Shown one piece after another: positions 13,571 to 53,167 of a stretch of 64,000 bases of DNA (positions within the stretch are counted from its first letter, which is position 1; each line of letters begins with the position of its first letter). A program made the position numbers and the translations under genes. The notes under the pieces were generated by a model. It was not told the origin of the DNA. It saw only the letters and a program-made list of their open reading frames with translations, and searched no databases. This stretch comes from an uncultured Gammaproteobacteria bacterium (lineage in GTDB: Bacteria; Patescibacteriota; Patescibacteriia; VMEV01; CAYQCH01), in NCBI GenBank assembly GCA_964503955.1, contig CAZDCG010000002.1, forward strand, positions 269,047 to 333,046, written 5' to 3'.

Positions 13571-13585
13571 AGCTTGCCGGCATTA

Positions 13586-15912: not shown

Positions 15913-15921
15913 ACAAAATGG

Positions 15922-19515: not shown

Positions 19516-19517
19516 AG

Positions 19518-26046: not shown

Positions 26047-26222
26047 GAATCAGCCTTATTTGGGCCGATGACCAAAGAATACCATAGCGGAGACATTAAA
26101 TCAAGCCAGATTTATTAGTCTTTTGTCAAATAGTATTTGGCTCGCTGATTGAATAAGCCCCCGCCGGGAAGGGGCCGAAATCGGCCATACCTCATCGATT
26201 CCGGCGAGGGCAAGAGTGAGAT

Positions 26223-26870
26223 CTACTCAATGATGATATCAAGAATCTTTATGTCTTCAAGCGGGTGGTCATTCGCATTGGTTTCAACGGCTGAGATGCG
26301 GTCAACAACGTCCATGCCTTCAACGATTTCGCCAAAGACCGCGTGCTTGCCGTCAAGCCATGGAGTTGCTTCCGCGGTAATGATAAAGAACTGGCTGCCA
26401 TTTGTATTTGGCCCGGCATTCGCCATAGAAATCATTCCGCGGACATTTTTGTGTCCGTTGAATTCATCGTCGAATTTGTAGCCTGGATCGCCCATACCAT
26501 GCAAATGCCATTCATCGGGATTGGTTCGGGTATTTGGATCCCCACCCTGAATCATGAAATCCGGGATCACGCGGTGAAAGAGAATGCCGTCGTAAAAATC
26601 TTCATTGGCCAGCTTCACGAAATTCGCCACGGTATTTGGGGTTGCTTCTTCAAAAAGCTGGATGCGGATATCCCCCATATTGGTTTTCATGACGGCGACA
26701 GGTCCTGCTTTGCTGGTTGATTTTACGGTTGTCTCTTCATTCATAGAAGTTGGCGGCGGCGTGACCTGCGATGTCTCACCGGCAGAATCGTAATAATAAG
26801 AATTGGAAGTCTGATTGCATGATGCGCCTGCGAAAACAAGCAGAGCAAGCATTGGGAACAAATATTTCAT
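26223..26870 (-). CDS. Cyclophilin-type peptidyl-prolyl cis-trans isomerase, secreted/lipoprotein
   Basis: Signal peptide with LLVFAGASC; cyclophilin core FHRVIPDFMIQGGDP...GMISMANAGPNTNGSQFFI. Confidence 0.85.
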   Translation of the reverse strand: MKYLFPMLALLVFAGASCNQTSNSYYYDSAGETSQVTPPPTSMNEETTVKSTSKAGPVAVMKTNMGDIRIQLFEEATPNTVANFVKLANEDFYDGILFHRVIPDFMIQGGDPNTRTNPDEWHLHGMGDPGYKFDDEFNGHKNVRGMISMANAGPNTNGSQFFIITAEATPWLDGKHAVFGEIVEGMDVVDRISAVETNANDHPLEDIKILDIIIE

Positions 26871-26978
26871 ACTCTGTTAACGGGTTAATGTGTTAGCGGG
26901 TTAACGAGTTGATTCTCCTTTCCCGCCGGGACAAAGCCCACGGCGCGCAAGGAATACACTATAACCTACATCTCTAAC

Positions 26979-28571: not shown

Positions 28572-28603
28572 AATGCTCGCAAGGGCAAGGAATAAATGAT
28601 CTG

Positions 28604-34600: not shown

Positions 34601-37600
34601 CGTTGGCTGATCCAATGATTCTGTGACGGCGCTTGTACCAAAATCAACAATATCAACACCGTTCACGCAATTAACCAACGAAGAGCTGCTGATTCTGTAT
34701 TCAGTGGTGCCCGTTTGAGCAGAATCTGTATACCAGGCGGAAAGGACAGGAGTTGATCTTGTGACCACAACCTGATCTTGCGGATAAATAATAAGCGGAT
34801 CCTGAAGCCCCTGCGCAGCGATGCGATACGCGACAAATTCACCTGTTGACGCGCGGTAGCCGGTTACATAGGCAAGGCTCGGGTCAATTGCGTCAATCGC
34901 ACTGTAAAACCCGGCCTCCGAATCGTCTCCATCAGGCTCGATATGAGTTGTGATATCCCAGGTATCACCGCCGTCTATCGAGAAAAAATATTGGAAGTCT
35001 AGATTGTTAGGAGCGGCTGCAAAGATATGGTCCGCGTCAGTCGCATCGATAGAAGGCCATTCAAAGAATCCCCCGGTACTGTCAATCACGCTGGTTTCCC
35101 ATGTCGCTCCTCCATCCGTTGTCTTCGCAAACATCAATGTTTGATCGGTATCATTTGTATAAACAGCATAAGCCGTAAGCTCGTCGATAACTTTGATCGC
35201 ATGTCCAAAACCGACATCTCCAACCGTATCAACATCGTTCAGAGTCCAGTTTGCGCCTCCATTGGTCGTTACAGCGGATTGGAGATCGCCATCCAAATCG
35301 TCACGATACAAAAGATAGATCGTGTTTTCATCAAATGCGTCGATCGCGTGCGGTGAGGTAATGTAGCCTGGCCCGACGGCGACCTCGGTTAAATCTCCGC
35401 CTGCATTTGTGGTAGACGTCACGTAAACCTGCCCATCCGCCTGTTTTGAATACGCAACAAAGAACGTATTGTCATCCACAACCGTAATGGCAGTATAGGA
35501 ATCAACATCATCGTCTTCATGTATGCCGATATAGGAGTCATCCGTTGTCCAAACCCAAACCTCGCTTAAAGGCCCGCCTCCGTCCCACGCATATGAAATA
35601 TAAGCAGTTCCGGAAGCAGTCGCGTCGATAGAGGTTGCGAAAACATCTGCATCAAAATCGAATTGATCCCAGGAGAATCCCCCGTTTTCAGAGAAGGCAA
35701 AGTATCCTTGACCGTTGTCTTCATCACGATAAGACGCGTAAAGATTATCCTCGTCGATCGCGACCATATCACTATCCGTCCCCGCGATATTGCCTCGTTG
35801 ATCAATGACAACTTCCGTCCAATTGCTTGTATCGATAGGGGTGGTATTTGTTTCATTCGACACGTCTCCCGTCCCAATCGCGTTTACCGCATAAACGACA
35901 AAGGTGTAATCGATGCCATTCACAAGGCCTGTTACGGTCGATTCCGGGATATCGCTGATACCGTCATCAAATACAGTGGCATTGCCCGGCCAGCCAGATG
36001 TTTCTCCGTATTCTATTACGTAATCTGTTATTGGTGATCCCCCGTCATTAGGCTCTGACCAGGTCAAGACTGCTTTACCGTTTCCAGGAGCGCCATCCAA
36101 ATCCGTGATAGCGGCGGGTGCGAATTGTCCTCCCATCCAGATTTCAAACGTTCCGGGCGCGCCCTCATGGATAGAAACCATGTCTAGCACACCATTTTTA
36201 TCCAAGTCCGCAAGCGCAGCATCAGTGCCGTGTTCTGCAACAGGAATCTGCCCTTTTGCGGAAAAATCAGGTGCCGCAGCAGAGTTGTTTAGTAAAATTT
36301 CATACCAACCATCGTTGAAACCGGGATTTGTGAATGCAACGATATCGGGATCATCGTCTCCATCAAGATCCCCTGATATGATCTCGCGGATACCATCGTT
36401 AAAAATGACATCAGGCTGAGACCAGGTAAATGAAGCACTCCCGTCGTTGGTACCAAAACTCAATGCGTCATTGGCAATGAGAAAATGATTGAAATCATCA
36501 GCGAGCAGGAACTGGTCCACAACAACATGATCCGTTGTTCCGAAATTGGCATCCGTTGAGTTGAAAGCAAAATTCGCGCTCCCGTCATTAAGCAAATATC
36601 CAACAGCATCGGTTGTCGCTCCCCCTTCGATAATGAGGTCAAGATCGTAGTCATTATCAAGATCAGCGGCATAGATCTCCAAAGAGGATGCCGTTACGGC
36701 ATAAGCCGCATCATATACCAGCTGGCTGCCATTATTGAGAAAGACAATGACATTTCCTGAAAAATACTGACTCACGGCAAAATCCATGAGCCCGTCTCCA
36801 TTGAAATCACCGGCAGCAACATCACCGAATGATACGTTATTCCCGCCCAGATCCACGGTCATCTCTGAATTGAAGTTCCCGCTGCCATCGTTCAAATGAA
36901 TTTCAATATCATTGCTTAAGTGAACGAAGATGATATCTAAATAGTCATCATCATTCATTGGAGCCAGTGAGATGTTGCGACCCTGAAGCCCCGGCTCTGA
37001 TATCACGATATCCACGGGAGAAGCAAAACCGCCAAGCCCGTCGCCAAGCCAGCGTTCCAGCCCTCCATTCATGTTAGAGATCACAAGGTCGAGATTGCCG
37101 TCTCCGTTCAAATCTCCTAATTTTACGTCGCTTGGACGCACGCCAAGACTTTGATCATTGTTGAACAATGTAGAGGAAGCATGTCCGAAATTCGCAAAAC
37201 CATTAGGCACGTTGACGGTATAGGTGAAGATATACGGGCCGTCTAACGGATCTCCCGTGGCGGCGGACAGGATCGCATTCGTAAGGGTGACGCTTACTTT
37301 TTCCCCTGCAAAATCAAATCCATCAGTTGGAGTAAACTGAACGGTTGTGTCTCCATTGCTGAACGCAAAATTTCCCAAGCTTCTGCGTCCCGTCTGGTTT
37401 CCAATCACCACAAAACTATCAGCCGTAATACTTGCCTGATCGACTGCTTCAGAAAAATCAACCGTGATGGGTGAATTGAAAGCAACACCGTTCGCGTGCA
37501 ATGACGGGGTGGTCGAAACAACAGATGGAATACCGGCGACAAAGACGGATGCCCTGACTCCAACTGCTTTATCGGATTGATATTGAGCAAGAAAGTATGA

Positions 37601-37660
37601 TGAGCATGCCAACAGAACGACAATAAACAGACTCGCTGTAAGAGCAAAGTATTTTCTCAT
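28604..37660 (-). CDS. Giant secreted surface protein 1 (3018 aa). Domain order: signal peptide, Big-like, FG-GAP/VCBS, FN3, BNR-like, SBBP-like beta-propeller repeats, FN3/DUF11-like, Pro-rich linker, Ig-like, TM, CarboxypepD_reg-like, 2TM, CarboxypepD_reg-like
   Basis: Single uninterrupted 9-kb frame. N-terminal signal peptide MRKYFALTASLFIVVLLAC. FG-GAP-like DLNGDGNLDLV/GDFNGDGLMDFAV. FN3-like VLTWSEPNDGGSPITDYVIEYG. BNR-like SENGGFSWDQ/TNGGANWT/TDGGATWE. Dozens of [Y]STFLGGSDDDWASAISVEGGDIYVSGGTASADFPATLGAYD repeats. C-terminal anchor module shared with the four downstream paralogs. Confidence 0.8.
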   Translation of the reverse strand: MRKYFALTASLFIVVLLACSSYFLAQYQSDKAVGVRASVFVAGIPSVVSTTPSLHANGVAFNSPITVDFSEAVDQASITADSFVVIGNQTGRRSLGNFAFSNGDTTVQFTPTDGFDFAGEKVSVTLTNAILSAATGDPLDGPYIFTYTVNVPNGFANFGHASSTLFNNDQSLGVRPSDVKLGDLNGDGNLDLVISNMNGGLERWLGDGLGGFASPVDIVISEPGLQGRNISLAPMNDDDYLDIIFVHLSNDIEIHLNDGSGNFNSEMTVDLGGNNVSFGDVAAGDFNGDGLMDFAVSQYFSGNVIVFLNNGSQLVYDAAYAVTASSLEIYAADLDNDYDLDLIIEGGATTDAVGYLLNDGSANFAFNSTDANFGTTDHVVVDQFLLADDFNHFLIANDALSFGTNDGSASFTWSQPDVIFNDGIREIISGDLDGDDDPDIVAFTNPGFNDGWYEILLNNSAAAPDFSAKGQIPVAEHGTDAALADLDKNGVLDMVSIHEGAPGTFEIWMGGQFAPAAITDLDGAPGNGKAVLTWSEPNDGGSPITDYVIEYGETSGWPGNATVFDDGISDIPESTVTGLVNGIDYTFVVYAVNAIGTGDVSNETNTTPIDTSNWTEVVIDQRGNIAGTDSDMVAIDEDNLYASYRDEDNGQGYFAFSENGGFSWDQFDFDADVFATSIDATASGTAYISYAWDGGGPLSEVWVWTTDDSYIGIHEDDDVDSYTAITVVDDNTFFVAYSKQADGQVYVTSTTNAGGDLTEVAVGPGYITSPHAIDAFDENTIYLLYRDDLDGDLQSAVTTNGGANWTLNDVDTVGDVGFGHAIKVIDELTAYAVYTNDTDQTLMFAKTTDGGATWETSVIDSTGGFFEWPSIDATDADHIFAAAPNNLDFQYFFSIDGGDTWDITTHIEPDGDDSEAGFYSAIDAIDPSLAYVTGYRASTGEFVAYRIAAQGLQDPLIIYPQDQVVVTRSTPVLSAWYTDSAQTGTTEYRISSSSLVNCVNGVDIVDFGTSAVTESLDQPTTFEASGLVHGETYYWCARNDNGTEQTDWTSMGEFTVNLLHPAGVSYSTFLGGSDDDWASAISVEGGDIYVSGGTASADFPATLGAYDTSLAGTNDVFVAKISPDGAGDADLIYATYIGGTDTDAASPFGDHRSLRIKVVAGEVYAAGTTASADFPTSLGAYDSTSDAGALDGFVFRLAADGSNLLYSTYIGGTLAEDDYIGGIDVGGGIIYVAGSTLSSDFPTTSGAYDESANGMTDIFLALISPDGNGAADLQYATIVGTGTGSSDAVDVEVDSGNAYILGYTTDSNFPTTAQAMQTTYGGGPFDDTLTIIDPSGNGSGDLVYSTFLGGDDNEDMLDLEVDQGIAYIAGLTNSTNFPTTAGAYSSSFNGNSEAVAVIIDPSSNGGDDLVYSTFIGGDADEAAYGIVVLPSGSIAIAGETNSSDFVTSTGESITDSAAFLAILDPSGNGQNDLTFSTQLDGEGADSVYSLHYDGVNLSLAGITNSADFVAFATGGDAYDVVANGGTEAFFISFEVDSELDPATVPPEAPTRVYPDEGATRAGVVILASNYTHSVLTGTTQFRVSSGSAADCLANVNIEASGTSSATNTKNAITYLRVSTLSNGIKYWCARNDNGTTQSDWTTMGSFIQDSGAPYLNYSTYFGGSAGDSVNGFDVENGIVYVAGSTDSVDFPVTAGVYDETFDSTDHSYVAAFSLDGNGAGDLQFATYFGGNATTLLNSLDFADDKIYLIGETHSTDIPYIADGGGVPFDNTADAGAFILRFNNDASVLEYSTRLMPRGIIGGDEIRVENGLVYAVGPAQLNLPTTAGAYDTTQNGSIDFYVMVLDLAGNGANDLLYSTYLGGGGFEALRSIDVHDGIVYLAGYSDTGSYPVTVGAFDTVKAGFGTEGVVSVLDPSGNGSSDLLYSTFMGGNDQEVVMAVIHHESTGHIYGCGSNGSGDMTITAGAYKSTSDDDGYMFVLDPGGNGAADLVYGSYGGNCSSAFLRNDDLYMLRVIDATFPITAGAYSNNINQDGFGLLRFSLDGNGSSDLVYGTRIGDAQVASSLIIEGDNIYFASETIDSDLESAAYPSLSQTGTPFSDQIASTSAEDGYITRIYYPDGATPPSSSQGTPAQVIQHQSLNIPNLGEATVLSHDRVQYEWSYAGSNHEGFHLLDAQNRIIATIASPQARQLTEEGLGHNTLISGRKIAAYLGSSMGTPSGVYPDVYTWMPEPTPIVTSRTDTNVEVSVVEAINNLTTNQSAIQFELVSVLGQTQAQLSDWIQTTSHTFSNLEGDQEYSVRVRARNADGVITDWSSMIHIPALSADEIVVLPTIRLMTLSENELPGIVVPHQSILVEASVRNAGAKNAHQVILNVPLPKYVSYTPRSLRVDGTLSSETGAADPGLANQNGISASWAMLEPGQSHAIRFEIALDTAALLHDFSASEASAVLAQANPLIQLQASVNHAGITEPIYSNIADFEVDIASLITPKNEPEPDQEPESQPEVLPRPIPEPTEDGLSPQYLQQLIDSLNQPEPQSPSMPSPAQTTVSTDGQSFNIEVTDDSRTVLIDGLADQQEEGIAFSGSTSEPNSVVTLIFNGLISVSAVSDTNGVWQAYVSAQQLGAQPGEPLRVSVEAIAVAGDLRSERVQVGEFTLTIAKEGEVQTDFETVVSSSELVTAIKTVTKEVQRVVEQREEEIQQTLAVAAPVVVISSAPLWGYLPYLPTLLYHAITYLVGLVGRRKKGQQRFFGIAYDAITKDPLALAIVRLYKKDGASERLVSTFVTDKQGKYDALLEPGSYRIEVKKPQYTFPSSIVTGTSQDGQYDHVYMGGVDITDQTTELVVPDLPMDPVNAEQKWQTASLFKKLWLSLQKAGQFLALPLLFVGSLASVMVVAAVPENPVNWILSAAYILLFMLQLTLRHKPEKAWGTVYDIATNAPLPLVNLQLIDPAFGKVVASRLSDYQGRFRFAPEPGKYVLKAEKPGFTQSEIVEAPKDRQPLPTQISIQKEGESVKGDIGLRRS

Positions 37661-37765: not shown

Positions 37766-40700
37766 TCAGTCATTCATGCGTCTGAGCGCGAGATCTCCTT
37801 TGACTGTTTCACCTTCTTTTCGGATATCAATTTCGCTTTCCAGCAATGCACGCGACTCTTTTTCTTCAACCACTTCCGTTTGCGCGTATCCTTCCTTCTC
37901 TGCCTTTAACACGTATTTCCCCGGTTCAGGCGCGAACCGGAAACGTCCTTGATAATCGGATAGCCTTGATGCAACCACTTTGCCGAATGCCGGATCAATC
38001 AGCTGGAGATTGACCAGCGGCAAAGGCGCATTTGTAGCGATATCGTAGACGGTTCCCCAGGCTTTTTCAGACTTTTGACGTAATTTCAGCTGCAAGAGGA
38101 ACATCAACACATAAGCGGCTGACAGAATCCAATTAATTGGATTTTCGGGAACCGCTGCCACAACAACGACAGATGCAAGCGAACCGACAAAAAGCAATGG
38201 AAGCGCGAGGAAATGGCCGGCTTTTTGGAATGAAAGCCAGATTTTCTTGAACACGTTGGCCGTCTGCCACTTCTGTTCCATATTGACCGGATCCATAGGC
38301 AGATCTGGGACAATCAGCTCGGTTGTCTGGTCAGTGATTTCAATTCCTCCCTGGTACACATGGTCATATTTTCCGTCCTGCGTAATGCCTGACACAATCG
38401 ATGACGGGAAGGTATATTGCGGCTTTTTCACTTCGATGCGGTATGAACCAGGTTCTAAAAGCGCGTCATATTTACCTTGTTTATCCGTCACAAACGTGGA
38501 AACAAGACGTTCAGCATCATGTTCTTTCTTATAGAGGCGGATGATTGCTAAAGCCAAAGGATCCTTGGTAATCGCGTCATAAGCCACGCCGAAGAATCGC
38601 TGCTGACCTTTCTTCCTTCTTCCCACTAGACCGACAAGATACGTGATCGCGTGATAGAGCAAGGTTGGAAGATATGGGAGATAGCCCCATAAAGGAGCCG
38701 ACGAGATGACAACCACGGGAGCGGCAACTGTTAATGTTTGCTGGATTTCTTCTTCACGATCCTGAATGATCTCTTCAACCTTGTTTGTAACAGCGTTTAT
38801 GAACGCGGATAATTCATTTGGAGCCGCAATTGTCTCAAAATCCGCTTCAACGATTTGTTCATTCGCTCCACGTTCAACCGTGAAGCCACCAACACTCACC
38901 CGATCGCTAAGCAAATTCCCCTTAGACGCAATCACCTGAACAGAAACATTGACTCTTTCCCCTGGGAGCAGTCCAAGTTGCTCCGCGCTCACATAGGTTT
39001 GCCAGAATCCCTCGTCATCACTGACGACGATAACGGTAATATTACCATTGAAGATAAGGGTTACCGTGCTATTCGGCTGGCTGGTTGTTCCTGAAAATTC
39101 GATCTGGCCATTGCCAACGCGCGCGATGCCTGTCACCAGCAGAGCTTCTTGTTCCTCTTCTCCTTGCTCTCGTACCACTTCAAGGGTGAAGCTTTCGCCG
39201 TCGCTTGAAACCGTTGTTATTGTTTGAGGCTCTGGTGCTGCCGGTTCCTCTAAATCATCAACGGATATGCCGATCTCATCTTCGATGAGACGGTCCACAA
39301 CCTGACCCACTTGCCCAACCTCTTCCTGCGTTGGCGCAGGGACAGATTCCTGCTCAACAGGCTTCTCTTTGGCCGGTTCAGATATTTCTTCATCAAGAAC
39401 AGGCAATGCTTCAACATCCTCAGGTTGCTCCGTGGTTTCTTCTTCAATAGGCTCGTCAACAGGCTCTTCCTCAACGGGTTGCTCTTCCACTGGCTCATCA
39501 ATAGGTTCCTCTTCTGCAGGTTCTTCATCGTTTGACTCGTCTGCAGGCGACTGCTGATTTTGTTCATTCTGCTGCTGAATCTGCTGGCGCTGCTGCTGGC
39601 TTATCCCATCGCTTTGCGAAGGAGCAGGAGCTGGGGATCCCATTGTGAAACTGTCCGCTGATGTTGAGTATTCCCCTTCCGTGTCGTTGTCATCCCAGAA
39701 TTTGATCCGCACATAATAAGTTGAGCCGTCTTGCGCAAGGGCTGCTCCGCCAAAATTGATATTTTGGCTTCGATTGCCATCAACACAATCGGCCATTGAT
39801 TGCTTGCCGCTATCCCAGATGATGCTTGCAAATGTTGAATCGGTATCATCTACCTGGACACGATACGCATTCATAACATCGCCGATATCGGGGTCATTGC
39901 AGATCGCGCTAAAAACAGGATTTGTGCTTGTAATCCCCGTAGGATTGCTTGATCCCGATTGCGCGTCCGTATCATGGATGAAAATTTCCGTCGGTGCTGA
40001 AGGAGCGGAAAAATTCGCGGGTTCAGGGAGATCAAATGCAGCAACGAATCCGTCATTTCCTCCTCCCCCGGTACCAAATACAACCGCCCCCCCTTCGGTT
40101 TCCAGATCCGGTGAAGACGTATAAGCGGAGACATAGAATCGATCGTTAGAAAGATCCAGATACGCTCCGGCATCAGATTCACTTCCACTCCCCCCAAAAT
40201 ACGTTGCGTGCACGAGGTCGGAGAGCCCTCCCCCAACAGCATTGAATCTGCCAATAATCAGATCTTTTATTCCGCCGGCATGCGTCGTTGAAAATGCATC
40301 GCTCGTCACAGGGAAACTGTCACCTCCTGATCCCAAGAATGTGAGGAGACTGTGTTCGCTTAAATGAAGTTCACCGCACCATTCGCTTTTCGTCCCCCCA
40401 AGATAGGTTCCATAGATCAAATCTTCTTCTCCATTTCCATTAAGCGACATGCGGTAAAAAAACATATCTCCATTTCCGCCGGCATTGATCTTGCTATACG
40501 CATTATTCGTTGTAGGCAGATCAGTCGAATGTGATGTTCCACAGACATAGACTTCCTGCGTTTGCTGATTTACTGCTGCGCTGAAAGCTGAATCATAATC
40601 ATCCGTTCCGCCAATGAAGGTGCCATAAGCAAGAGAAGTAACCGAGGTGCCAGACGGGTCGATTTTGAGCAGAAATCCATCGCCGTTCACATTATCAAGA

Positions 40701-43700
40701 TCAGCATCAAATGCGCCGGCAGTGACTGCGGGGAAATCTGAAGAATATGTTTCTCCTACCACATACACATAATCGCTGTCAGCCGTAATCCCCCACGTAT
40801 CATCAACGTCGCTCCCTCCCGCATAACTTGAATAAACAAGTGAAGAAGCTCCGCTGACTGTTGTATCGATGAGGGCAATAAAAACATCACCATTGATTTC
40901 ATCTTCTGTTGTGTCAAAGGCATTTGCGGTGAGCGGAAAATCAGTTGAATACGTGGATCCGGAGACAGCAACAAGGCCGTCGGATGCATGCATGGATTTC
41001 CAAAACATGAATTCAGACCCGGAGCCGCCAAGGTAGGTTGCAAAGAGCACCGTATCCAGATCTTCATTCAGCTTAGCAACATAAGCATCACCTAAAGGGT
41101 CGGGAGTCATATCATGGCCCGCTATGTCTGGAATATGGGTTGAGACAAAGAAATCAGTAGAAGAACTGATCCCAGCGATATAGACATTCCCATTCTCATC
41201 AACACGCCCCGCGCTTGCACCATCATTACCGTCACCCCCAAAATACGTGGAAACGAGTATCCCAGTCCCCTGTTCGTTGAGTTTAAAAACGACGATATCA
41301 TTCGTACCGGCCAATGCAGGCTGCATCGCGCTAGCAACAGGAAAATCGGCAGATGAACTGGATCCGATGGCGATAATATTTCCTTGCGTGTCAACCCCCA
41401 CTCCCGCCAGCTGATCTCCATCACTGCCTCCAAGCTGTGTGGCTACGGGAAGAGAGGCTGCCGGAGAAAATGAACCAAAAGCAAGCTTCATGGCAAAGGT
41501 ATCGAAGTTTGTTGTATTGTTCTGAGTTTCATCATAAGCACCAGCTGTTGTTTGATAGCCGGCGGAACTGGTTTGGCCTCCGATATAGATGTCACCATTG
41601 CCATCAATGGCCATATCCCAAGCGCTTGTTGAACCGGATCCTCCAAAATATGAGGAAAAGAGCAGATCTGAGCTTCCATTCCCACCAGGGTCCAGCTTCA
41701 CGATGACACCGTTGCTGCTCGTTTCAAATGTGGAATCAAACGCGTCCGGAGTCACAGGAAAGTTCGAAGATGTTCCGCTCGAGGTTCTTCCGGTTACGTA
41801 GATACTTCCGCTGCTATCAACGGCAACAGCCTCTGCATTGTCATTGGAGGCAGAGCTGCTTATATATGTTGAATAAACAAGGTCATTTGTTCCATTCCCT
41901 CCCGGATTCAGCCTTGCAATAACCCAATCCTCACCGCTTTCGTATGATTCGTCATACGCGCCAGCGGTCACAGGAAAGTTATTGGATTGCGTGGATCCCG
42001 CAAGGTATATGTCTCCGTTCGATCCGTGAAAAACACCACCAGCAGTGTCCCTTGCCGTACCTCCAAGAAATGTCGAATAGATCAGATCAGTCGCGCCTGA
42101 TCCTGCAGGATTGATAATTGTGACAAATAGATCAAAATTTCCGTTATGCGACGTATCAAAGGCATTTACCGATGTAGGAAAATCCACGGAACTCGTCTCG
42201 CCGAATAAAATTGCCCGGCCGCTGCCGTCTATTGCCACGTCAGCGATAAATTCATAGTCGCTGTCCGGCCCGAGAAATGTGGAATACGCCAAAGATGCAG
42301 CACCGCTCTGAGATGTATCGATTAAGGACAAAAACGCGTCCCAATTGGAATTATCACCTGTTTCGTCGTAGGCATTTGCGGTGACCGGAAATTCAAGGCT
42401 CCCTACTTCACCGACAAGATAGGCTACCCCTGCATCCGTGACATCCATGGAATAGGCATATTCCCAGTCGCTATTGCCACCAAGCACGGTTGAATAGATG
42501 AATGCAGCCCCGGACGGAGATAAGACGCTCAGAACCGCGTCACCGGAAAAATCAGGGGTGGAGGCTTGAAACTCATTAAGAACAGGATAATCCGTATCGC
42601 AGGTGCCTCCCGTAACATATGCATTGCCCGCAGCATCAACCTTTCCTTTTGTCAGATAGGTAGCACAATCCGTTCCTCCAATATAGGTCGCATAAACCAA
42701 ATCAGATACTCCATTCCCCTCCGGTGAGAGCTTTGCCACAAACCCGACTGATCCGCTCGGAGGAATCGTGTCTTGCGCTGAACCAGGCGTTGCAGGAAAG
42801 TCATCACTGTCCGTTTCCCCGAATAGGTAAATATTGCCGTTTGAGTCAACGTCAATACCGTAGGCAAAGTCAGATCCGTTGGCACCGCCAAGAACCGTGC
42901 TGTATTCAAGCAATGACGGTACGGACACCGTAAAGCTGCCCATGAATGAAAAGTCGCCATTATTACTTTCAAATTCACCATCGGATGTTCTCACACACCA
43001 ATAATACGTTGTTCCATCCGAAAGACCTGAAGCAATAAAAGATGCATTTTGGTTACTCGATACCGTAGAGCTGCTGCCGCTTGCCACAACACCGGCCCCA
43101 TCAGAGAGACAATCCGCTTCCCCGGTGGAACTAATGCGAAAATCGACAACAAGCTCTGATCCGGCATCGTCATCTAAAGCCTTCGCAACCAATTGAATCG
43201 ATGTATTGGTAACCGTTGTCCCATCCGTTGGAGACACAACGGTTGATTCGCGAGGCGCGCCGTTTCGTGTGGTCATGGCAAAGACGAGTCCATCATATAC
43301 TCCACCGAGGAAATTCGGACGCACCGAGCCATTTGTGCCCATCCCGACGGAATTAACACGTCCTGCGCCATAGATTGTCTGTGTTGTGTCATCCACCACG
43401 ATGGCTCGTCCTTGATCGGCACCCGCACCACCAAAGAGCCGATGATAACTTGAATAGAGCAAGGTGTCGCCCGCCGGGTTGACCTTGACGACGACAAAAT
43501 CTCCCTCAGCATTTTCAACGGTATTTGGGGTCGGCTGCGCAGCATTTGCCGTTACAGGGAATCGTTGCGCGTGAAGGTTTGATTGACCGATCGCGTAAAC
43601 ATTTCCCGCGGAATCAGCATCAACTCCATAAAACCAATCGCTGGCTCCGCCGCCAAACAGACTTGACCAGACAAGTGAATTTTCTCCTGTCGTTGTTGTA

Positions 43701-45478
43701 TTGAATTTCGCAATAAACGCGTCTCTCCCCCCATGAACGCCCGCAGCCGAGTACGCATCCGGAAAGTTTCCACTCAGAGGATTTTTTGTAGGAAAGCCGG
43801 TCACTGCCGTTCCTGCAAGGTACACATGTCCGGCATTCAAAGGGTCTGGCACAACACCGTATGCTATCTCAGCACCTTCCTCAGTGCCTAGATAACTAAT
43901 GTACTGAATAACTCCAGTGGAATTTGTTTTTATCAGGAGAGCATAACCAGATATCCCGATTGCTGCCGTTTGGTATCCGTTTTCAGGGAATACATCCGTC
44001 ACATTCGCAGTGGTCGTTCCTACGACATAGATATTTCCGCTATCGTCCACCTCAACATCGTATGGCACTCCGCTGATAAACTGCCTCGCGAATATTCTCC
44101 CGGTACCGGTTGAATTGATTTTGACGATGGATACGCCAAACCCCTCCTCTCCGGTTGTATGCCAGTCTTCATCCCACGAATCATCCTCCGCCAGAATTGC
44201 ATTTCCTACAGAGTCAATCGCCAATGCGTCTGCTGATCCATGAGTATAGGTTGAAAAAATAAGCGCATCGCCGTCAGCATCAAGACGTGTTAAAAATCCA
44301 TTGCTGTTAAAATCTTCTCCGATGACTCCAGGCGTCATTGGAAACGAGTCGCTTGTGGTTGTTCCTGAAATATACACGGATCCATCTGAATGAACCGCAA
44401 TTCCTGTTGCATCTTCCGCTTTGGTTGTACCTAAATACGTTGCGTAGACAAATGATGTTCCAGTGGAATTCAACTTCAAGACGAAGACATCATGATCTCC
44501 CGCGAAATTTTCCTGATAATGCCCGCTTGTCGGCGTAAGATTAGTTGAAGTCGTTTTTCCTACAACATAGAGATCTCCTGATGTATCGCGCACCATGTCA
44601 ATAATCTCGTCGTCAATATTTCCCCCAACATAGGTAGACCAGGCCACATAAGGATCGATGATCAACTCATACGATGCATCATATTCACCCAATGCGAATC
44701 CATACGAACTGTCGTCAATGATTTGATAAGAAGATTCCACCGGTTTCTTTTCTCCGTTAATCAATTGATACGTTTCCGGAGGTTTGATTCCCAGATTTCC
44801 CTGCGCCGTTTGCAGCACCAATGTTCCATCAGGATTGAGAGAAATTTTGTCGACTCCTTCAATCAATAGTTGAATTTGCGAAGGATCCGCATAAGGAGAT
44901 ACAAGATATTCGTATTTCAGCTGAGATGATTTCCCACTGTAAACAAGATCAATGCCGTCATAAAGATTCTCATAACGAATTTTTCCGAAGGTCGAAGCAC
45001 CCTGCACCCATTTATCCGGATCATTGCCAATGAAATAATTAACCTTGCCCTCTTGCTCTTCTTCTCCAGCAATCGTCACTGCACCATTGGCATTCATGAA
45101 TTTCTGGCGAATAACCGTAGTTGATACAGTATCCTCAGTTTCCCTGCTTTCTCTTTTTTTCGCAGCCCGCTCGCGCGGAGAAAGAATTTGCGAATCCTCA
45201 GAAGCTGACCGCTCGGTAATGCTGAACACAACCTCCTCAGGCGTGAAAAAAATAGATGTACCGCCGTTTCGGACGAGATATTTCACAACCTCGTCCACTT
45301 GACCGCGGTTTTCCTGAAAACTAAGTGCCAGCCCGTTCAAAAGCTGTTTGACCTGTTCCTCTGAGACAGGAGTCTCTTCGGGTGTAAACAATGATTCATT
45401 TTTATAAAGATACGCAACGGCAAATACAAAAACGATTAGAGCAAACGCTCCAATGATCCATTTGATATGTTTGTTCAT
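37766..45478 (-). CDS. Giant surface protein 2 (2570 aa). Domain order: N-terminal signal anchor, ENRGQ domain, SBBP-like repeats, uncharacterised FSAIC module, acidic E/P linker, Ig-like, shared C-terminal 3-TM/CarboxypepD_reg anchor
   Basis: N-terminal TM IIGAFALIVFVFAVAYLY, then LSFQENRGQVDEVVKYLV (the ENRGQ domain, also in gene 4). Many xSTYxGGxxxDxxxGIxVDxxGNxYIxGxTxSxDFPxT repeats. The C-terminal ~450 aa is near-identical to gene 3. Confidence 0.8.
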   Translation of the reverse strand: MNKHIKWIIGAFALIVFVFAVAYLYKNESLFTPEETPVSEEQVKQLLNGLALSFQENRGQVDEVVKYLVRNGGTSIFFTPEEVVFSITERSASEDSQILSPRERAAKKRESRETEDTVSTTVIRQKFMNANGAVTIAGEEEQEGKVNYFIGNDPDKWVQGASTFGKIRYENLYDGIDLVYSGKSSQLKYEYLVSPYADPSQIQLLIEGVDKISLNPDGTLVLQTAQGNLGIKPPETYQLINGEKKPVESSYQIIDDSSYGFALGEYDASYELIIDPYVAWSTYVGGNIDDEIIDMVRDTSGDLYVVGKTTSTNLTPTSGHYQENFAGDHDVFVLKLNSTGTSFVYATYLGTTKAEDATGIAVHSDGSVYISGTTTSDSFPMTPGVIGEDFNSNGFLTRLDADGDALIFSTYTHGSADALAIDSVGNAILAEDDSWDEDWHTTGEEGFGVSIVKINSTGTGRIFARQFISGVPYDVEVDDSGNIYVVGTTTANVTDVFPENGYQTAAIGISGYALLIKTNSTGVIQYISYLGTEEGAEIAYGVVPDPLNAGHVYLAGTAVTGFPTKNPLSGNFPDAYSAAGVHGGRDAFIAKFNTTTTGENSLVWSSLFGGGASDWFYGVDADSAGNVYAIGQSNLHAQRFPVTANAAQPTPNTVENAEGDFVVVKVNPAGDTLLYSSYHRLFGGAGADQGRAIVVDDTTQTIYGAGRVNSVGMGTNGSVRPNFLGGVYDGLVFAMTTRNGAPRESTVVSPTDGTTVTNTSIQLVAKALDDDAGSELVVDFRISSTGEADCLSDGAGVVASGSSSTVSSNQNASFIASGLSDGTTYYWCVRTSDGEFESNNGDFSFMGSFTVSVPSLLEYSTVLGGANGSDFAYGIDVDSNGNIYLFGETDSDDFPATPGSAQDTIPPSGSVGFVAKLSPEGNGVSDLVYATYIGGTDCATYLTKGKVDAAGNAYVTGGTCDTDYPVLNEFQASTPDFSGDAVLSVLSPSGAAFIYSTVLGGNSDWEYAYSMDVTDAGVAYLVGEVGSLEFPVTANAYDETGDNSNWDAFLSLIDTSQSGAASLAYSTFLGPDSDYEFIADVAIDGSGRAILFGETSSVDFPTSVNAFDTSHNGNFDLFVTIINPAGSGATDLIYSTFLGGTARDTAGGVFHGSNGDIYLAGSTQSNNFPVTAGAYDESYESGEDWVIARLNPGGNGTNDLVYSTYISSSASNDNAEAVAVDSSGSIYVTGRTSSGTSSNFPVTPDAFDSTFETSSNGVIVKLDPGGNGSSDLLFSSYFGGSGSTSAWDMAIDGNGDIYIGGQTSSAGYQTTAGAYDETQNNTTNFDTFAMKLAFGSFSPAASLPVATQLGGSDGDQLAGVGVDTQGNIIAIGSSSSADFPVASAMQPALAGTNDIVVFKLNEQGTGILVSTYFGGDGNDGASAGRVDENGNVYIAGISSSTDFFVSTHIPDIAGHDMTPDPLGDAYVAKLNEDLDTVLFATYLGGSGSEFMFWKSMHASDGLVAVSGSTYSTDFPLTANAFDTTEDEINGDVFIALIDTTVSGASSLVYSSYAGGSDVDDTWGITADSDYVYVVGETYSSDFPAVTAGAFDADLDNVNGDGFLLKIDPSGTSVTSLAYGTFIGGTDDYDSAFSAAVNQQTQEVYVCGTSHSTDLPTTNNAYSKINAGGNGDMFFYRMSLNGNGEEDLIYGTYLGGTKSEWCGELHLSEHSLLTFLGSGGDSFPVTSDAFSTTHAGGIKDLIIGRFNAVGGGLSDLVHATYFGGSGSESDAGAYLDLSNDRFYVSAYTSSPDLETEGGAVVFGTGGGGNDGFVAAFDLPEPANFSAPSAPTEIFIHDTDAQSGSSNPTGITSTNPVFSAICNDPDIGDVMNAYRVQVDDTDSTFASIIWDSGKQSMADCVDGNRSQNINFGGAALAQDGSTYYVRIKFWDDNDTEGEYSTSADSFTMGSPAPAPSQSDGISQQQRQQIQQQNEQNQQSPADESNDEEPAEEEPIDEPVEEQPVEEEPVDEPIEEETTEQPEDVEALPVLDEEISEPAKEKPVEQESVPAPTQEEVGQVGQVVDRLIEDEIGISVDDLEEPAAPEPQTITTVSSDGESFTLEVVREQGEEEQEALLVTGIARVGNGQIEFSGTTSQPNSTVTLIFNGNITVIVVSDDEGFWQTYVSAEQLGLLPGERVNVSVQVIASKGNLLSDRVSVGGFTVERGANEQIVEADFETIAAPNELSAFINAVTNKVEEIIQDREEEIQQTLTVAAPVVVISSAPLWGYLPYLPTLLYHAITYLVGLVGRRKKGQQRFFGVAYDAITKDPLALAIIRLYKKEHDAERLVSTFVTDKQGKYDALLEPGSYRIEVKKPQYTFPSSIVSGITQDGKYDHVYQGGIEITDQTTELIVPDLPMDPVNMEQKWQTANVFKKIWLSFQKAGHFLALPLLFVGSLASVVVVAAVPENPINWILSAAYVLMFLLQLKLRQKSEKAWGTVYDIATNAPLPLVNLQLIDPAFGKVVASRLSDYQGRFRFAPEPGKYVLKAEKEGYAQTEVVEEKESRALLESEIDIRKEGETVKGDLALRRMND
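38559..39920. repeat. Copy A of ~1.36-kb near-identical direct repeat (inside giant gene 2)
   Basis: Sequence identity with 46327-47665 begins at ggatccttggtaatcgcgtcataagccacgcc and ends at ...agatcgcgct. Copy A carries an extra 18 bp (ctcaacgggttgctcttc, about 39466-39483) and a few SNPs. The identical antisense ORFs 38855-39094 and 46623-46862 in the ORF track confirm it. Confidence 0.85.
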
Positions 45479-45539
45479 AGATATCCTGTCAACATCATGC
45501 GTTCATTGTAACAGACAGAGACCAGAGATCAACACGTGA

Positions 45540-48500
45540 TCAAAAGAGTCGCATCGGAATATCACCGCTGATTGTCTGGTTCTCCTTTTCAATCACCAGC
45601 TCGCCGGAAATCATACGGTGGTTTTTCGCGCCTTCAACCACTTCCGCCTGCGCATAGCCATCCTTTTCCGCTCTCACGACATACTTCCCAGGCTCAGGCG
45701 TGAATCGGAAACGTCCTTGATAATCAGAAAGACGGGAGGCAACAACTTTGCCAAAGGCAGGATCAATCAACTGGAGGTTCACAAGCGGCAAAGGCGCGTT
45801 TGTTGCAATATCGTAAACAATTCCCCACGCTTTTTGCGGTTTTTGACGCAATTTTAACTGCAGCAGGAACATCAACACGTAAGCGACGGACAAAATCCAG
45901 TTGATTGGATTCTCAGGAACTGCCGCCACGACAACAACGGAGACAAGCGACCCGGCAAAAAGCAGCGGCAAAGCCAGGAAATTGCCGGCTTTCTGCAATG
46001 AGAGCCAAAGTTTCTTGAAGATATTCGCTGTTTCCCACTTCAGTTCTGCGTTGACGGGGTCCAGCGGCAAGTCAGGGACAACCAGTTCAGTTGTCTGATC
46101 GGTGATCTCAATTCCCCCTTGGTACACATGGTCGTAAGCACCATCTTCCGAGGTCTCTGAAACGATGGATGATGGGAAGGAGTACTGGGGTTTCTTCACG
46201 TCAATGCGATACGAGCCTGGTTCAAGCAGAAAGTCGTACTTCCCTTGTTTGTCGGTAACGAAAGTAGAAACCAGGCGTTCAGACGCATTTTCTTTTTTAT
46301 AAAGACGGACGATCGCAAGAGCTAGAGGATCCTTGGTAATCGCGTCATAAGCCACGCCGAAGAATCGCTGCTGACCTTTCTTCCTTCTTCCCACTAGACC
46401 GACAAGATACGTGATCGCGTGATAGAGCAAGGTTGGAAGATATGGGAGATAGCCCCATAAAGGAGCCGACGAGATGACAACCACGGGAGCGGCAACTGTT
46501 AATGTTTGCTGGATTTCTTCTTCACGATCCTGAATGATCTCTTCAACCTTGTTTGTAACAGCGTTTATGAACGCGGATAATTCATTTGGAGCCGCAATTG
46601 TCTCAAAATCCGCTTCAACGATTTGTTCATTCGCTCCACGTTCAACCGTGAAGCCACCAACACTCACCCGATCGCTAAGCAAATTCCCCTTAGACGCAAT
46701 CACCTGAACAGAAACATTGACTCTTTCCCCTGGGAGCAGTCCAAGTTGCTCCGCGCTCACATAGGTTTGCCAGAATCCCTCGTCATCACTGACGACGATA
46801 ACGGTAATATTACCATTGAAGATAAGGGTTACCGTGCTATTCGGCTGGCTGGTTGTTCCTGAAAATTCGATCTGGCCATTGCCAACGCGCGCGATGCCTG
46901 TCACCAGCAGAGCTTCTTGTTCCTCTTCTCCTTGCTCTCGTACCACTTCAAGGGTGAAGCTTTCGCCGTCGCTTGAAACCGTTGTTATTGTTTGAGGCTC
47001 TGGTGCTGCCGGTTCCTCTAAATCATCAACGGATATGCCGATCTCATCTTCGATGAGACGGTCCACAACCTGACCCACTTGCCCAACCTCTTCCTGCGTT
47101 GGCGCAGGGACAGATTCCTGCTCAACAGGCTTCTCTTTGGCCGGTTCAGATATTTCTTCATCAAGAACAGGCAATGCTTCAACATCCTCAGGTTCCTCCA
47201 TGGTTTCTTCTTCAATAGGCTCGTCAACAGGCTCTTCCACTGGCTCATCAATAGGTTCCTCTTCTGCAGGTTCTTCATCGTTTGACTCGTCTGCAGGCGA
47301 CTGCTGATTTTGTTCATTCTGCTGCTGAATCTGCTGGCGCTGCTGCTGGCTTATCCCATCGCTTTGCGAAGGAGCAGGAGCTGGGGATCCCATTGTGAAA
47401 CTGTCCGCTGATGTTGAGTATTCCCCTTCCGTGTCGTTGTCATCCCAGAATTTGATCCGCACATAATAAGTTGAGCCGTCTTGCGCGAGGGCTGCTCCGC
47501 CAAAATTGATATTTTGGCTTCGATTGCCATCAACACAGTCGGCCATTGATTGCTTGCCGCTATCCCAGAGGATGCTTGCAAATGTTGAATCGGTATCATC
47601 GACCTGGACACGATACGCATTCATCACATCGCCGATATCGGGGTCATTGCAGATCGCGCTGAAAACCGGGGTTCCGGCTGTAAGGTCTATTGGATTTGAT
47701 AAGCCAGCCTGAGCATTTGTATTGTTGGCAAACAGGTTGGTCGGAGCTGTCGGCGCGGAGTTGGTGGCGCCAGCGCCTGCAAAATCGATACGCATGATCA
47801 ATCCCTTATCGAAACTTCCGTCAACCGTGGTCTGAAACGGAGTACCTGTCGCGGAGAATGCTTCTAAAGAATACGCCTGCATGTACCCGCCCAGATAGAC
47901 GATATCTCCTTGAACATCAACCCCCCGGAAATGCTCATCAGTACCATCCACGCCAAAAATTGAAGCGTAAATAAGATCATTAACACCGTTTCCTCCGGGA
48001 TTCAGGCGCAGGAGGTACGCATCTTGGCTAAAAAACACCTCGTTTCCATAGGTTGTCGCAGGCGTGACAAGAGGGTTGTTATCGCTGGTTGATCCGACCA
48101 GGTAGACATCTGTACCGTCGAAAGCGATGTTATTAAAGCTCTGACTGATGAAAGTCGAATATTCTAAGGCCCCTGTACCAGCAACGGCGGTGTCAAATTT
48201 AATCAGATAACCTTCACTGAACCCAGTGAAACTTGTGTCGTAAGCACCCACGGTTGTGGGGAAACCCGAACCGCCCGTATTGCCAACCACATATATCTCA
48301 CCCGTTGTTCGATCAAATGCCGCGCCGGTTACGCTTTCGCTGCTTGTTGTGCCCAGGAATGACAGGTATTGCATGTCTGTTGATCCTCCACCTGCCGGGT
48401 CAAGGCGCCCAAAAACGGTATCCAAGCTACCGTTGTGCGTTGAATCATATCCTCCAGGTAATGACGGAAAGTTGGATGAGAATGCGTCGAGGGTGAAATA

Positions 48501-51500
48501 GATCAGTCCGTCAATAGACGCCATTTTGGGGGCAAATTCATATACCGATCCGCCAATGTATGTTGAGTATTGAAGATCGGCAGCACCATTCCCAGCAGGA
48601 TCAAGCACGACGATAACCGAATCACGGATGCCTCCATTGTATGTTGTGTCATACGCGCCTGCCGTCACCGGGAAATTTGAGGTGTTCGCGTAGCCGCCCA
48701 GATACATCACTCCATCCACAACATCTTCAATATTGATCAAATCCGACGATGTGCTGCCAATGTAAGTGGAATATTCCAGCGTTGTTCCCACGCTGTCCAA
48801 ACGAAGCGCAAATCCGTCGTCAGCGCCGTTATGCGTCGTGTCATACGCCCCGAGTGTTGTCGGGAAATTAGTAGAGTTCCCCCATCCAGCAATGTAGATA
48901 TCTGTGCCGTCATGGATGATCGACCAGCTCTGCTCATTGCCTGTGCCGCCGATGTATGTCAGAAAAACCATGTCATCTGCTCCAGCGCCGTTGAACTGGA
49001 TCCCCCCAACAAGGACATCCGTGTTCGTATTATAAGTCGTATCATAACTGCCCACGGTTACAGGAATATCAGTTGAATTTGTCTTCCCCGTGAAATACAT
49101 CGTATCACCTTCAAAATCCACATCGTAAATAAAATCCTGGCCAGTTCCTCCGAGATAGCTGATGTAGTTTGGATACGGAGCCGTATGATCTTTGACGAAA
49201 GAACCCATTGCGGTCCAAGCAGACTGTTGCGTGCCATCATTGTTACGAGCGCACCAGTAGTATGTTGCATCAGGCAGGTTGCCTGTTTGATACATGGTCG
49301 GCTGCAAGATTCCTGTTGTGGTTGCGCTGGAACCAGAATCGACCACGTTAACATTGTTAACACAATCCGTGGTGCTGGAAGTTGAAACCCGGTAATCCGT
49401 TGTACCTACTGAGACATCATGCTCATACCACACAGACAAAAACACTTTCCCCGCGCGGACAGCACCATCATCGGGGAACCGCAAGATCGGCGCCACTGGC
49501 GGATTCGGCACCCCGTCAGCAAAGGTGATGCGCGTAATAACAGCATCAGTACCGCCATTGTAGGAAAAGTCATACGGATCACCCCCAACAGCCATTACTG
49601 GATAACTGTGTGATGTCATCTCCCCTGTAAAAATCAAGGACTCCGTTGACGGATCAAAAACCATACCATCATTCGCAGGCTGGGCAAACGAGTTCGGGTC
49701 ATTAGATTCGATCAAGCTGGCATAAACCAAATCATTAATGCCGTCACCAGCCGGTTCAAGTTTCATAACACCAAATGCTGATTGGGTTGAGGTCAAAACA
49801 GCATCAAAAGCGTTATCCGTGGTTGTCAGCCCGCTTCCGACTCGGCCGAATAGATAAATGAACCCTGCATTGTATTCCAGACCAAAGCCGAGCAATCCAT
49901 TGGTAAAGGTTCCATAAACAAGGTCAGATGCCCCTGTTCCGGCAGGGTTGAGGGCCAAAATGAAGCCGTCAGATGATCCTGGGTACGTGCTCACATATGA
50001 ACCGGCTGTAACTGGAAAATCAGAGGAATTTGTAAATCCAGTTGCGTACACGATGCCGCTGTTAACGGAGACACCACGGATCACTTCATTGGCCCCATTG
50101 CCGCCGACATAACTGCCGTATGTCAGATCTGAAGCGCCCGTTCCCGCAGGATTCAAACGGCCAATGTAACTGTCCCGGCCTGTATTATCTGTTGTATCGA
50201 GCGCTCCTGCTGTTGTAGGCATGTTCGTAGCAGACGTGTACATACCGAAATAGATGATGCCACTTGCGACATCCAGCGTTTCAATCGATTCGTCTGACGA
50301 ATTACCGCCGAAATATGTCGAGTACACCAAATCCGCAGATCCAGCGCCATCCGGACTCAAGCGGAACAGGAAGCCATCAGTTGAAGTATCAATAGCAGTA
50401 TCGAATGCCCCTGCCGTTGTTGGCAGCGAGCTTCCTGTGACATTTCCAGCAACATAGACATCTCCGCCGTCAATATCCATGTCGGTAGGCTGTATATTGT
50501 TCCCTGTTCCTACATAGGTACTGTACCCCAGCGTGTCTCCGGAAAGATTCAAGGTCGTCACTGTAGCGAGCAAATCTGATGCAGCATTCGTCGTATCATA
50601 AGCTCCACCCGTGGTTGGGTAATCCGTGGAATCGGATGATCCTGCGATATAAATAGTGGTCGCATCTACTTTGATGCTGCGGCCGTAATCATCAACGTCG
50701 CCTCCGATGAATGTTGAAAATACCAGGTCTGTCGCTCCCGTTGCCTGAGGATCGATTGCAACGACATACGCATCAACTTCGGCATTGAACGTCGTGTCGT
50801 AGCCCGCGCTTGTAGGAAAATCCGTCGATGAAGTGCCACCGGTCACATAGATAATCCCGTCGCTTCCTAAAGCAATCCCCATGGGAGATTCAGAACTTGA
50901 TCCGCCCAAATACATCGAATAATTAATGGCCGGCGTTGTGAGATCGACCGTAAACGATCCCATTTCCGCCCAATTGCTTGTCCATGAATTCACATCTTCA
51001 TTCTGCGCGCACCAGTAGTAGGTGTTGCCGTCAGCGATGGAGGATTCAACAACAATGCCCGTTGCTTCGTTTAAGCGGGTTGTCTCGTTGCTGCTAGCTG
51101 TATAAACGATGTTCGTGTCATTGACGCAATCCGCAAGGGAGCTGCTGCTTACGCGATAATTGGTTACGCCAAGATCGAGGTCGGCTACATACTGCGCGGA
51201 CAAGTATGGTTTGAGAGGAACCGTCGCGTTGTCAGCAGGCAGGACCTGAACAGGATCAGCGACAGGGATACAGTCTCCGCCAGGTCCAGAGGGATAAGTG
51301 TTGCCGTCGAAGTTCGCACTGAACACCGGCTGTCCGATTCCGTCATTGTAGGAATAAAAGACATCAACACCAGAACCGCTGTCATGCTGCGCGCCGGCAC
51401 CAGAAAAACGAGATCCAAAGGAGACATTGAAGTTTGAACCACCGTTGGAGTCCGCATCGTCAATCAACACCCCTCCAATTTCCCAAATACTGTCACCGGT

Positions 51501-53048: not shown

Positions 53049-53133
53049 AAGTTCGTGAGTGTAAAGTCAATTCTATACACAGATTATAGCATGGATGAGA
53101 AATACTCTCCGCTGACTTATCCCCTGAATATGC

Positions 53134-53160
53134 AAAAAAAGAGCAGCGATTTCGCTGCTC
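53134..53160 (-). terminator. Intrinsic terminator immediately 3' of giant gene 4: perfect 8-bp GC-rich stem (GAGCAGCG/CGCTGCTC), 4-nt loop, U7 tract on minus strand
   Basis: aaaaaaa gagcagcg attt cgctgctc read on the minus strand gives hairpin + UUUUUUU. Also A/T-flanked on plus, so it is bidirectional in form. Confidence 0.6.
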
Positions 53161-53167
53161 TTTTCTC

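Follow-up and report, generated by a model that had tools for sequence, protein, structure and literature searches.

How have two neighbouring giant genes, whose products are otherwise only distantly related, come to share about 1.36 kb of nearly identical DNA? The question is raised by a stretch of 64,000 nucleotides from an uncultured bacterium (contig CAZDCG010000002.1; hereafter the window), in which five giant genes, referred to as g1 to g5, lie in tandem, all on the minus strand, according to the list of open reading frames (ORFs). An earlier note on this DNA had pointed to the repeat between g2 and g3 and had ascribed it to recent gene conversion. The present analysis makes it highly probable that the repeat is indeed a tract of recent gene conversion between these two old tandem paralogs. 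The features concerned are the following, all positions being window coordinates:

37766-45478, minus strand: gene g2, 2570 amino acids (ORF list, Pfam, N-terminus and hydropathy)
45540-53048, minus strand: gene g3, 2502 amino acids (ORF list, Pfam, BLASTP)
38558-39919, minus strand: probably converted tract, g2 copy, 1362 bp, codons 1854-2307 (self-BLAST, MAFFT window, difference list)
46326-47669, minus strand: probably converted tract, g3 copy, 1344 bp (self-BLAST, MAFFT window, difference list)
38558-39426 (= 46326-47194), minus strand: perfect core of the tract, 869 bp (maximal exact matches)
39463-39480, minus strand: 18-bp insertion in g2 relative to g3, in frame, six codons (QPVEEE)
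39737-39919 (against 47487-47669), minus strand: transition zone at the N-terminal (5') tract end, seven single-nucleotide differences (SNPs) in 183 bp, 96.2% identity
37864-38557, minus strand: 3' flank, probably unconverted, in the anchor tail of g2, 76.5% identity (531/694) to g3 45632-46325
39920-40399, minus strand: 5' flank of g2, probably unconverted, at most 55% nucleotide identity to g3, the proteins being collinear and in register

Self-BLAST of the part from 28 to 64 kb restricted the homology among the paralogs to tails of about 0.9-1 kb with 77.5-83% identity, except for g2 and g3, whose alignment extended over 2056 bp with 90.8% identity. Along this pair, identity in a MAFFT sliding window amounts to 71-81% at 37861-38555, rises to 97-100% at 38556-39855, and is 50% or less past 39956. 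In the base-by-base list, 1335 of the 1344 aligned bases of the tract agree (99.3%, or 98.0% counting the indel columns), and the differences consist of nine SNPs (g2 positions 39427, 39432, 39737, 39788, 39820, 39851, 39875, 39911, and 39917) and the single in-frame indel of 18 bp. The two copies are offset by 7768 bp, and by 7750 bp beyond the indel. Identity reaches 99.78% at 38558-39462 and 100% at 39481-39736, the latter being the second-longest perfect run (256 bp). At the identity of the 3' flank, an 869-bp perfect run would be expected by chance with P of about 1e-101.

At the 3' end the tract breaks off abruptly, identity falling from 100% to about 72% over no more than a few bases. 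Beyond the 5' end, where the sequence codes for the start of the same Ig domain and for the last propeller repeats, identity is 54.5% at 39920-40018 and about 36% in the ungapped comparison of 39920-40220. Outside the tract, the exact matches between g2 and g3 are all shorter than 20 bp. No third copy of the tract was found in the window, and only its first 200 nucleotides, which code for the first hydrophobic segment (TM1), match other paralogs (g1 with 89%, g5 with 86%). A direct repeat of about 1.36 kb and 99% identity, differing by one 18-bp indel and a handful of SNPs, is what the earlier note had described, and its size, its differences, and, to within 1-4 bases, its coordinates are borne out by self-BLAST, MAFFT, and the difference list. 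Its values of 85-90% for the flanks and for the other paralog pairs, however, were too high (76.5% on the 3' side, 54.5% and then about 36% on the 5' side, and 77.5-83% among the other pairs, over the tail of about 0.9 kb only), and the repeat called perfect over 1.4 kb is so only in its 869-bp core.

Could selection have kept the two copies alike? According to Nei-Gojobori estimates, there is no synonymous difference at 213 sites of 38558-39460, with two nonsynonymous differences at 690 sites, and synonymous divergence (dS) in the remaining part of the tract (39482-39919) is 0.07. In the adjoining tail of the same two genes, the proportion of synonymous differences (pS) is 0.74, i.e., saturated (dS > 3), with a nonsynonymous divergence (dN) of 0.08, and dN is 0.47 over the 33 codons that precede the tract on its upstream side. 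Synonymous identity directly beside a saturated tail rules out selection at the protein level as the cause of the identity. Selection at the nucleotide level would have to act on something like an RNA or a regulatory element embedded in the tract, or on a gene overlapping it. Several plus-strand ORFs of 51-122 amino acids do overlap the tract region, but this is as expected by chance, and nothing specific speaks for this cause. The homologous segments of g1, g4, and g5 are only 37-89% identical to the tract, an Rfam scan of the window gave zero matches, and promoter- and terminator-like sites are no commoner than in shuffled sequences. Moreover, 0 of 213 synonymous changes beside saturated sites is unlike the constraint of a local element, and in a related locus of a metagenome-assembled genome (MAG) two tandem tails are only 66% identical, which argues against a nucleotide constraint across the family. 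An explanation by nucleotide-level selection is therefore given next to no credence.

The relationships among the paralogs change at the tract boundary. Judged by the tail, g2 lies closer to g1 (dS 1.06) and g5 (1.10) than to g3 (3.2), whereas in the tract it equals g3, with g1 and g5 being 37-89% identical to the tract; the phylogenies of tract and flank are thus incongruent. In the part of the tract that can be aligned across g1, g2, g3, and g5, the pair g2-g3 is concordant at 57 consecutive variable sites (permutation p <= 2e-4).

The form of the tract bears on the kind of exchange. Both of its boundaries lie within homologous domains and at codon phase 0 relative to the stop codons of the respective genes, and across the 5' boundary an alignment of 187 amino acids is collinear with 44% identity. 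With both ends in register inside homologous domains, the exchange must have been guided by homology. After a single unequal crossover, identity would continue through the gene end into the intergenic spacer. It does not, and such a crossover is rejected given the two in-register boundaries. A segmental or a recent whole-gene duplication is equally rejected, since the boundaries are in register and the flanks anciently diverged. The claim of recent conversion is thereby upheld by synonymous sites, incongruence, permutation test, and boundaries alike. About 1.36 kb would have been copied from one of the adjacent giant genes into the other by an exchange that we infer to have been non-reciprocal and that is formally equivalent to a double crossover. 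The overwritten segment would be the membrane-proximal one, comprising most of the Ig_Rha78A_N domain, the acidic linker, the Ig-like domain, the stalk, and the first hydrophobic segment. The mechanism is presumed to be homology-dependent and of the RecA type, and no dedicated machinery is implied.

Several points weigh against this interpretation. The evidence comes from assembled sequence, in which an artefact might have homogenised the two copies. The nearest family members retrieved are 51-55% identical in amino acid sequence, so that the non-reciprocity is not polarised by them. Across most of the tract region, identity among the other paralogs amounts to no more than 37-66%; if g2 and g3 had once been equally divergent, the 5' end may have been short of homology, which is one reason to favour repeated homogenisation over a single event.

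Concerning the assembly, an artefact of assembly or polishing would mean that the true tract of one gene is diverged or missing and that the sequence of the other paralog was copied in, or, as a variant, that two copies had collapsed and polymorphisms between strains were then assigned to the wrong one. Only contigs from metagenomes and from SRA runs match the window, which suggests an uncultured source organism, the 869-bp exact repeat exceeds the resolution of short reads, and at least three strains with 98.9-100% identity are present in public runs, such that mixed-strain data are plausible. The respective Logan contigs were found via the housekeeping flank (window 23566-28708):

SRR11843816: contig L085, 100% identity, 1447 bp
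SRR11843834: contig L087, 99.6% identity, 3001 bp, ending 105 nucleotides into the g1 tail
SRR19086438: contig L086, 98.9% identity, 3849 bp

Judged from these contigs, several strains of the source organism, with the same strain in SRR11843816, have been publicly sequenced. All three end at or before the g1 tail, possibly because the paralog tails share exact runs of at least 31 bp, and the tract junctions lie outside their reach. On the other side, both genes are intact, and the tract boundaries are in register and exact to the codon. Mis-mapping during polishing presupposes copies that are already similar and would not create a step from 100% to about 72%. The copies were resolved as distinct, retaining nine SNPs and the indel in a window without any N, and the collapse of a de Bruijn graph would break or delete the 7.8-kb interval rather than duplicate a block. 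An artefact is therefore regarded as improbable. The earlier remark that the repeat poses an assembly hazard is nevertheless reasonable, an exact repeat of 869 bp being too long for short reads to resolve.

Was the tract formed by one event? The nine SNPs are unevenly spread: seven of them are crowded into the final 183 bp, at its 5' (N-terminal) end (binomial P = 2.4e-5), and six of these seven are synonymous. This clustering suggests at least two nested events of different age, or else patchy repair of heteroduplex DNA, and does not sit well with the single event that the earlier note had implied. The 5' zone with its 3.8% divergence might then be the remainder of an older, longer tract partly overwritten by a younger one, or the result of such patchy repair. 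In the simplest view, the indel and its two adjoining SNPs would have arisen later, by slippage and mutation within the periodic linker. All seven SNPs of the transition zone have A/T in g2 and G/C in g3 (plus strand), the overall GC content at third codon positions being 0.44 in g2 and 0.50 in g3. This bias could be a remnant from before the conversion or a product of biased repair, but a sample of seven is too small to judge.

A history of several events leads to the question of whether the tract is a fixed homogenisation domain, reconverted ever since g2 and g3 originated, with flanks that escaped early and now block its extension. Divergence within the tract is graded, rising from 0% to 3.8% over its last 183 bp. 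In Escherichia coli, the minimal length for efficient recombinational pairing is about 23-27 bp; the matches between g2 and g3 in the tail, all shorter than 20 bp, lie below this minimum, and the tail would for that reason have stayed out of reach of homogenisation. Furthermore, dS between g1 and g2 is 0.55 in the TM1-coding part as compared to 1.06 in the tail, and other paralog pairs contain short runs of excess identity (uncorrected permutation p 0.0002-0.014), which suggest older small exchanges across the array. These short runs could also reflect uneven constraint along the sequence, however. Long-running concerted evolution of this kind, which refines recent conversion rather than contradicting it, is held to be possible, but somewhat doubtful.

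As to the runs themselves, g1 has exact matches of 38, 35, and 26 bp to g2 and g3 where TM1 is encoded. The pair g1-g2 reaches 93% identity around 37973-38062, with an exact run of 35 bp, and g3 and g5 share an exact run of 42 bp at 45876. Direct repeats of high identity also occur in two distantly related loci. In one of them (L046), a direct repeat of 1095 bp with 89.5% identity (11285-12379 against 19077-20167) consists of an upstream spacer and the first approximately 340 codons of a 2546-amino-acid gene situated after a family member, and recurs just past that gene, at the place where a next gene would start. The other (L009) carries a tandem repeat of 1280 bp with 98.9% identity (13502-14781 against 14852-16131). 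Arrays of this type may often be partly homogenised.

What, then, has been exchanged? The g2 protein combines a signal-anchor, DUF7948, SBBP beta-propeller repeats, and Ig_Rha78A_N with an acidic linker, an Ig-like domain, and a membrane-anchor tail that is conserved. The layout of g3 matches that of g2 (Ig_Rha78A_N domain, linker, Ig-like domain, anchor), and the ectodomains of the two are distant paralogs, with 53.6% amino acid identity over a whole-length BLASTP alignment that includes the tract. In g2 the tract corresponds to residues 1854-2307. It starts at PVFSAIC, eleven residues into the Pfam match to Ig_Rha78A_N (1843-1947), continues via the Q-rich, acidic linker, an Ig-like beta-sandwich, a helical stalk, the first hydrophobic segment, and the motif RRKKGQQR, and stops after P2307, about ten residues into the first CarboxypepD_reg-like domain; the succession of domains from FSAIC to the first CarboxypepD_reg given in the earlier note holds. 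The perfect core codes for part of the linker, the Ig-like domain, the stalk, the first hydrophobic segment, and RRKKGQQR. The indel is situated within the acidic linker, which has an imperfect period of 12 nucleotides, and is adjoined by the nonsynonymous SNPs 39427 and 39432; both genes remain intact despite it. The Ig-like domain is the only confident part of the AlphaFold2 model (predicted local distance difference test, pLDDT, 72-83; model residues 232-363) and has a weak, sub-threshold similarity to Ca_tandemer.

The tract ends within a C-terminal module of about 340 amino acids that is common to all five giant proteins. This module comprises, in order, a hydrophobic segment (APVVVISSAPLWGYLPYLPTLLYHAITYLVGLVG), RRKKGQQR, a CarboxypepD_reg-like domain, a two-helix hydrophobic hairpin, and a second CarboxypepD_reg domain; in g2 it is encoded at 37766-38800, with equivalents in the tails of g1, g3, g4, and g5. 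By the positive-inside rule, both transthyretin-like domains are predicted to be cytoplasmic, an unusual location for this fold. The tails of g1, g2, g3, and g5 form a within-genome group (79-85% amino acid identity), and that of g4 clusters with proteins from MAGs and metagenomes (62-65%). On the sequence comparisons, the tail is ancient paralogous sequence kept by purifying selection on the protein. The five paralogs would accordingly be old, their anchor module having been retained by such selection and their ectodomains having deeply diverged. The AlphaFold2 model of tract plus tail (mean pLDDT 49) was too poor for a fold search or for topology, and a PDB sequence search gave zero matches.

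In outline, an array in which five surface-protein genes stand in tandem and combine variable ectodomains with an anchor that is constant resembles contingency loci, and programmed variation has to be considered as a further cause: a diversity-generating retroelement (DGR), or cassettes of the pilE/pilS or vlsE type with the repeat as recombination handle. Among the scanned ORFs of at least 150 amino acids, however, none has a reverse-transcriptase, recombinase, or transposase domain; the mismatches (G/C, G/A, A/G, T/G, A/C) are not adenine-specific; and the tract is about ten times as long as the template repeat of a DGR. The proteins of g1 to g4 are full-length with signal-anchors, so none of these genes is a silent cassette, and it is the constant and not the variable region that was exchanged. 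Programmed variation is accordingly judged very improbable. A DGR with template and variable repeats (TR/VR) was rejected given that no reverse-transcriptase domain occurs in the scanned ORFs of at least 150 amino acids and that the repeat measures 1.36 kb as against about 100-150 bp. Antigenic variation from silent cassettes was rejected on account of the four complete genes with start codons and the exchange of a conserved stalk and anchor. A mobile element or its terminal repeat was also rejected, since no transposase or integrase was found in the scanned ORFs and the repeat is in frame and encodes domains of the host protein.

The remaining members of the array are located on both sides of g2 and g3:

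28604-37660, minus strand: gene g1, 3018 amino acids
53168-62182, minus strand: gene g4, 3004 amino acids
62245 to window end, minus strand: gene g5, partial

All four complete proteins (g1 to g4) have a signal-anchor at the N-terminus, and start codons are present. Their ectodomains are large and mutually divergent: that of g4 contains DUF7948 and SBBP beta-propeller repeats, that of g1 FG-GAP, fn3, and Big_5 domains. The spacer between g3 and g2 is only 61 bp long, with a weak promoter-like match at 45532-45505, and the spacer downstream of g4 (53049-53167) has a hairpin rich in GC with a run of T after it on the coding strand (…AAAAAAAGAGCAGCGATTTCGCTGCTCTTTTCTC, plus strand). To judge by these spacers, g3 and g2 may form one transcription unit apart from g4. 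The genes downstream of the array are ordinary chromosomal ones on the minus strand, i.e., uvrC, cyclophilin, GT2 glycosyltransferases, DUF4012, and two mreB paralogs (13586-14641 and 19518-20543), further mreC, PBP2, greA, frr, an M50 protease, and holB, as well as several class II aminoacyl-tRNA synthetase genes, including lysyl- and seryl-type ones. Every ORF examined across the window (1-64000) is on the minus strand. A tRNA scan of the window gave zero matches, the GC content is 48.7%, and the regional composition is unremarkable. In a related locus (L002), a 515-aa ORF follows the giant gene at the place that uvrC occupies after g1.

Searches of public data retrieved only distant relatives of the giant proteins themselves. 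An exact look-up of the g1, g2, and g3 proteins revealed no independent assemblies on record, and a genome-contig scan with the g2 tract and tail gave zero matches. With an alignment of the five paralogs, the genome-contig scan yielded four MAG loci (52-55% amino acid identity). A metagenome scan yielded at least 80 loci with related tails (23-35%), and a protein search five matches of at most 52%. All these relatives are too distant to polarise or date the event. When the concatenated ectodomains of g2 and g3 were used as a query, distant SBBP-repeat proteins swamped the result, and no large identical fragment appeared.

How does the exchange compare to known systems? The conversion of tufA and tufB in Salmonella is one example of exchange between bacterial paralogs. 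Gene conversion and concerted evolution are also known from the rRNA operons of E. coli (PMC8022953), and cases of conversion between paralogs have been compiled across prokaryotes (PMC6053082). Common to these systems and to the pair g2/g3 are two copies per genome, near-identity that includes synonymous sites, diverged flanks, incongruence between tract and flank, and a presumed homology-dependent mechanism of the RecA type. There are some differences, however: here only an internal segment of 1.36 kb within genes of 7.5-7.7 kb is homogenised, the partners are adjacent direct repeats and not dispersed copies, and the flanks are saturated at synonymous sites, which makes the contrast extreme.

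In Mycobacterium tuberculosis, conversion is described for the PE/PPE and ESX multigene families of surface antigens, and both studies stress the blind spot of short-read assembly (PMC13061034, PMC12046097). These families resemble the present array in being surface or secreted proteins with repeats and in having tracts of hundreds of base pairs to kilobases. Conversion is reported there as a source of antigen diversity, whereas here a conserved membrane-proximal stalk and anchor were converted and the ectodomains left untouched. In systems of cassette antigenic variation (Neisseria pilE/pilS, Borrelia vlsE, and Mycoplasma genitalium MgPa), one expression site is combined with silent partial cassettes, and the variable region is exchanged. 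What g2 and g3 would share with them is recombination of a non-reciprocal kind among paralogous sequences for surface proteins that lie in tandem or close by, but here the four genes with 5' ends in the window are complete and the exchange affected the constant region. The event is of a kind well known in bacterial multigene families, and no new mechanism or system is revealed.

Concerning the consequences, all exact matches of 20 bp or more between g2 and g3 lie inside the tract, which is therefore the only place where the two can recombine again, and the perfect core would be the main substrate for further recombination of the RecA type. Such recombination would delete 7.77 kb and leave an in-frame chimera of the g3 ectodomain and the g2 tail; this product had been predicted in the earlier note, correctly for genes on the minus strand, and it would be in frame since both copies are at codon phase 0 relative to their own stop codons. 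The reciprocal event would instead leave three genes, the additional one joining the g2 ectodomain to the g3 tail. The 869-bp direct repeat is thus a hazard for short-read assembly and binning and a predictable site of in-frame deletion or duplication. Because the tract dates the exchange and not the duplication, 38558-39919 and 46326-47669 should be masked in trees and ortholog sets.

It is conceivable, albeit quite improbable, that the tract is a maintained recombination hinge, in which repeated homogenisation of stalk and anchor preserves a long perfect repeat; nothing found here supports this specifically. If it were true, the population would continually yield in-frame chimeras of ectodomain and anchor, deletions, and duplications, and with them variation in the copy number and repertoire of giant surface proteins in a possibly host-attached bacterium. 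The conversion between g2 and g3 itself provides a clean and well-delimited example from an uncultured bacterium, set within tandem genes for surface proteins of very large size, and it would mean that the membrane-proximal module is interchangeable between paralogs of very different ectodomain.

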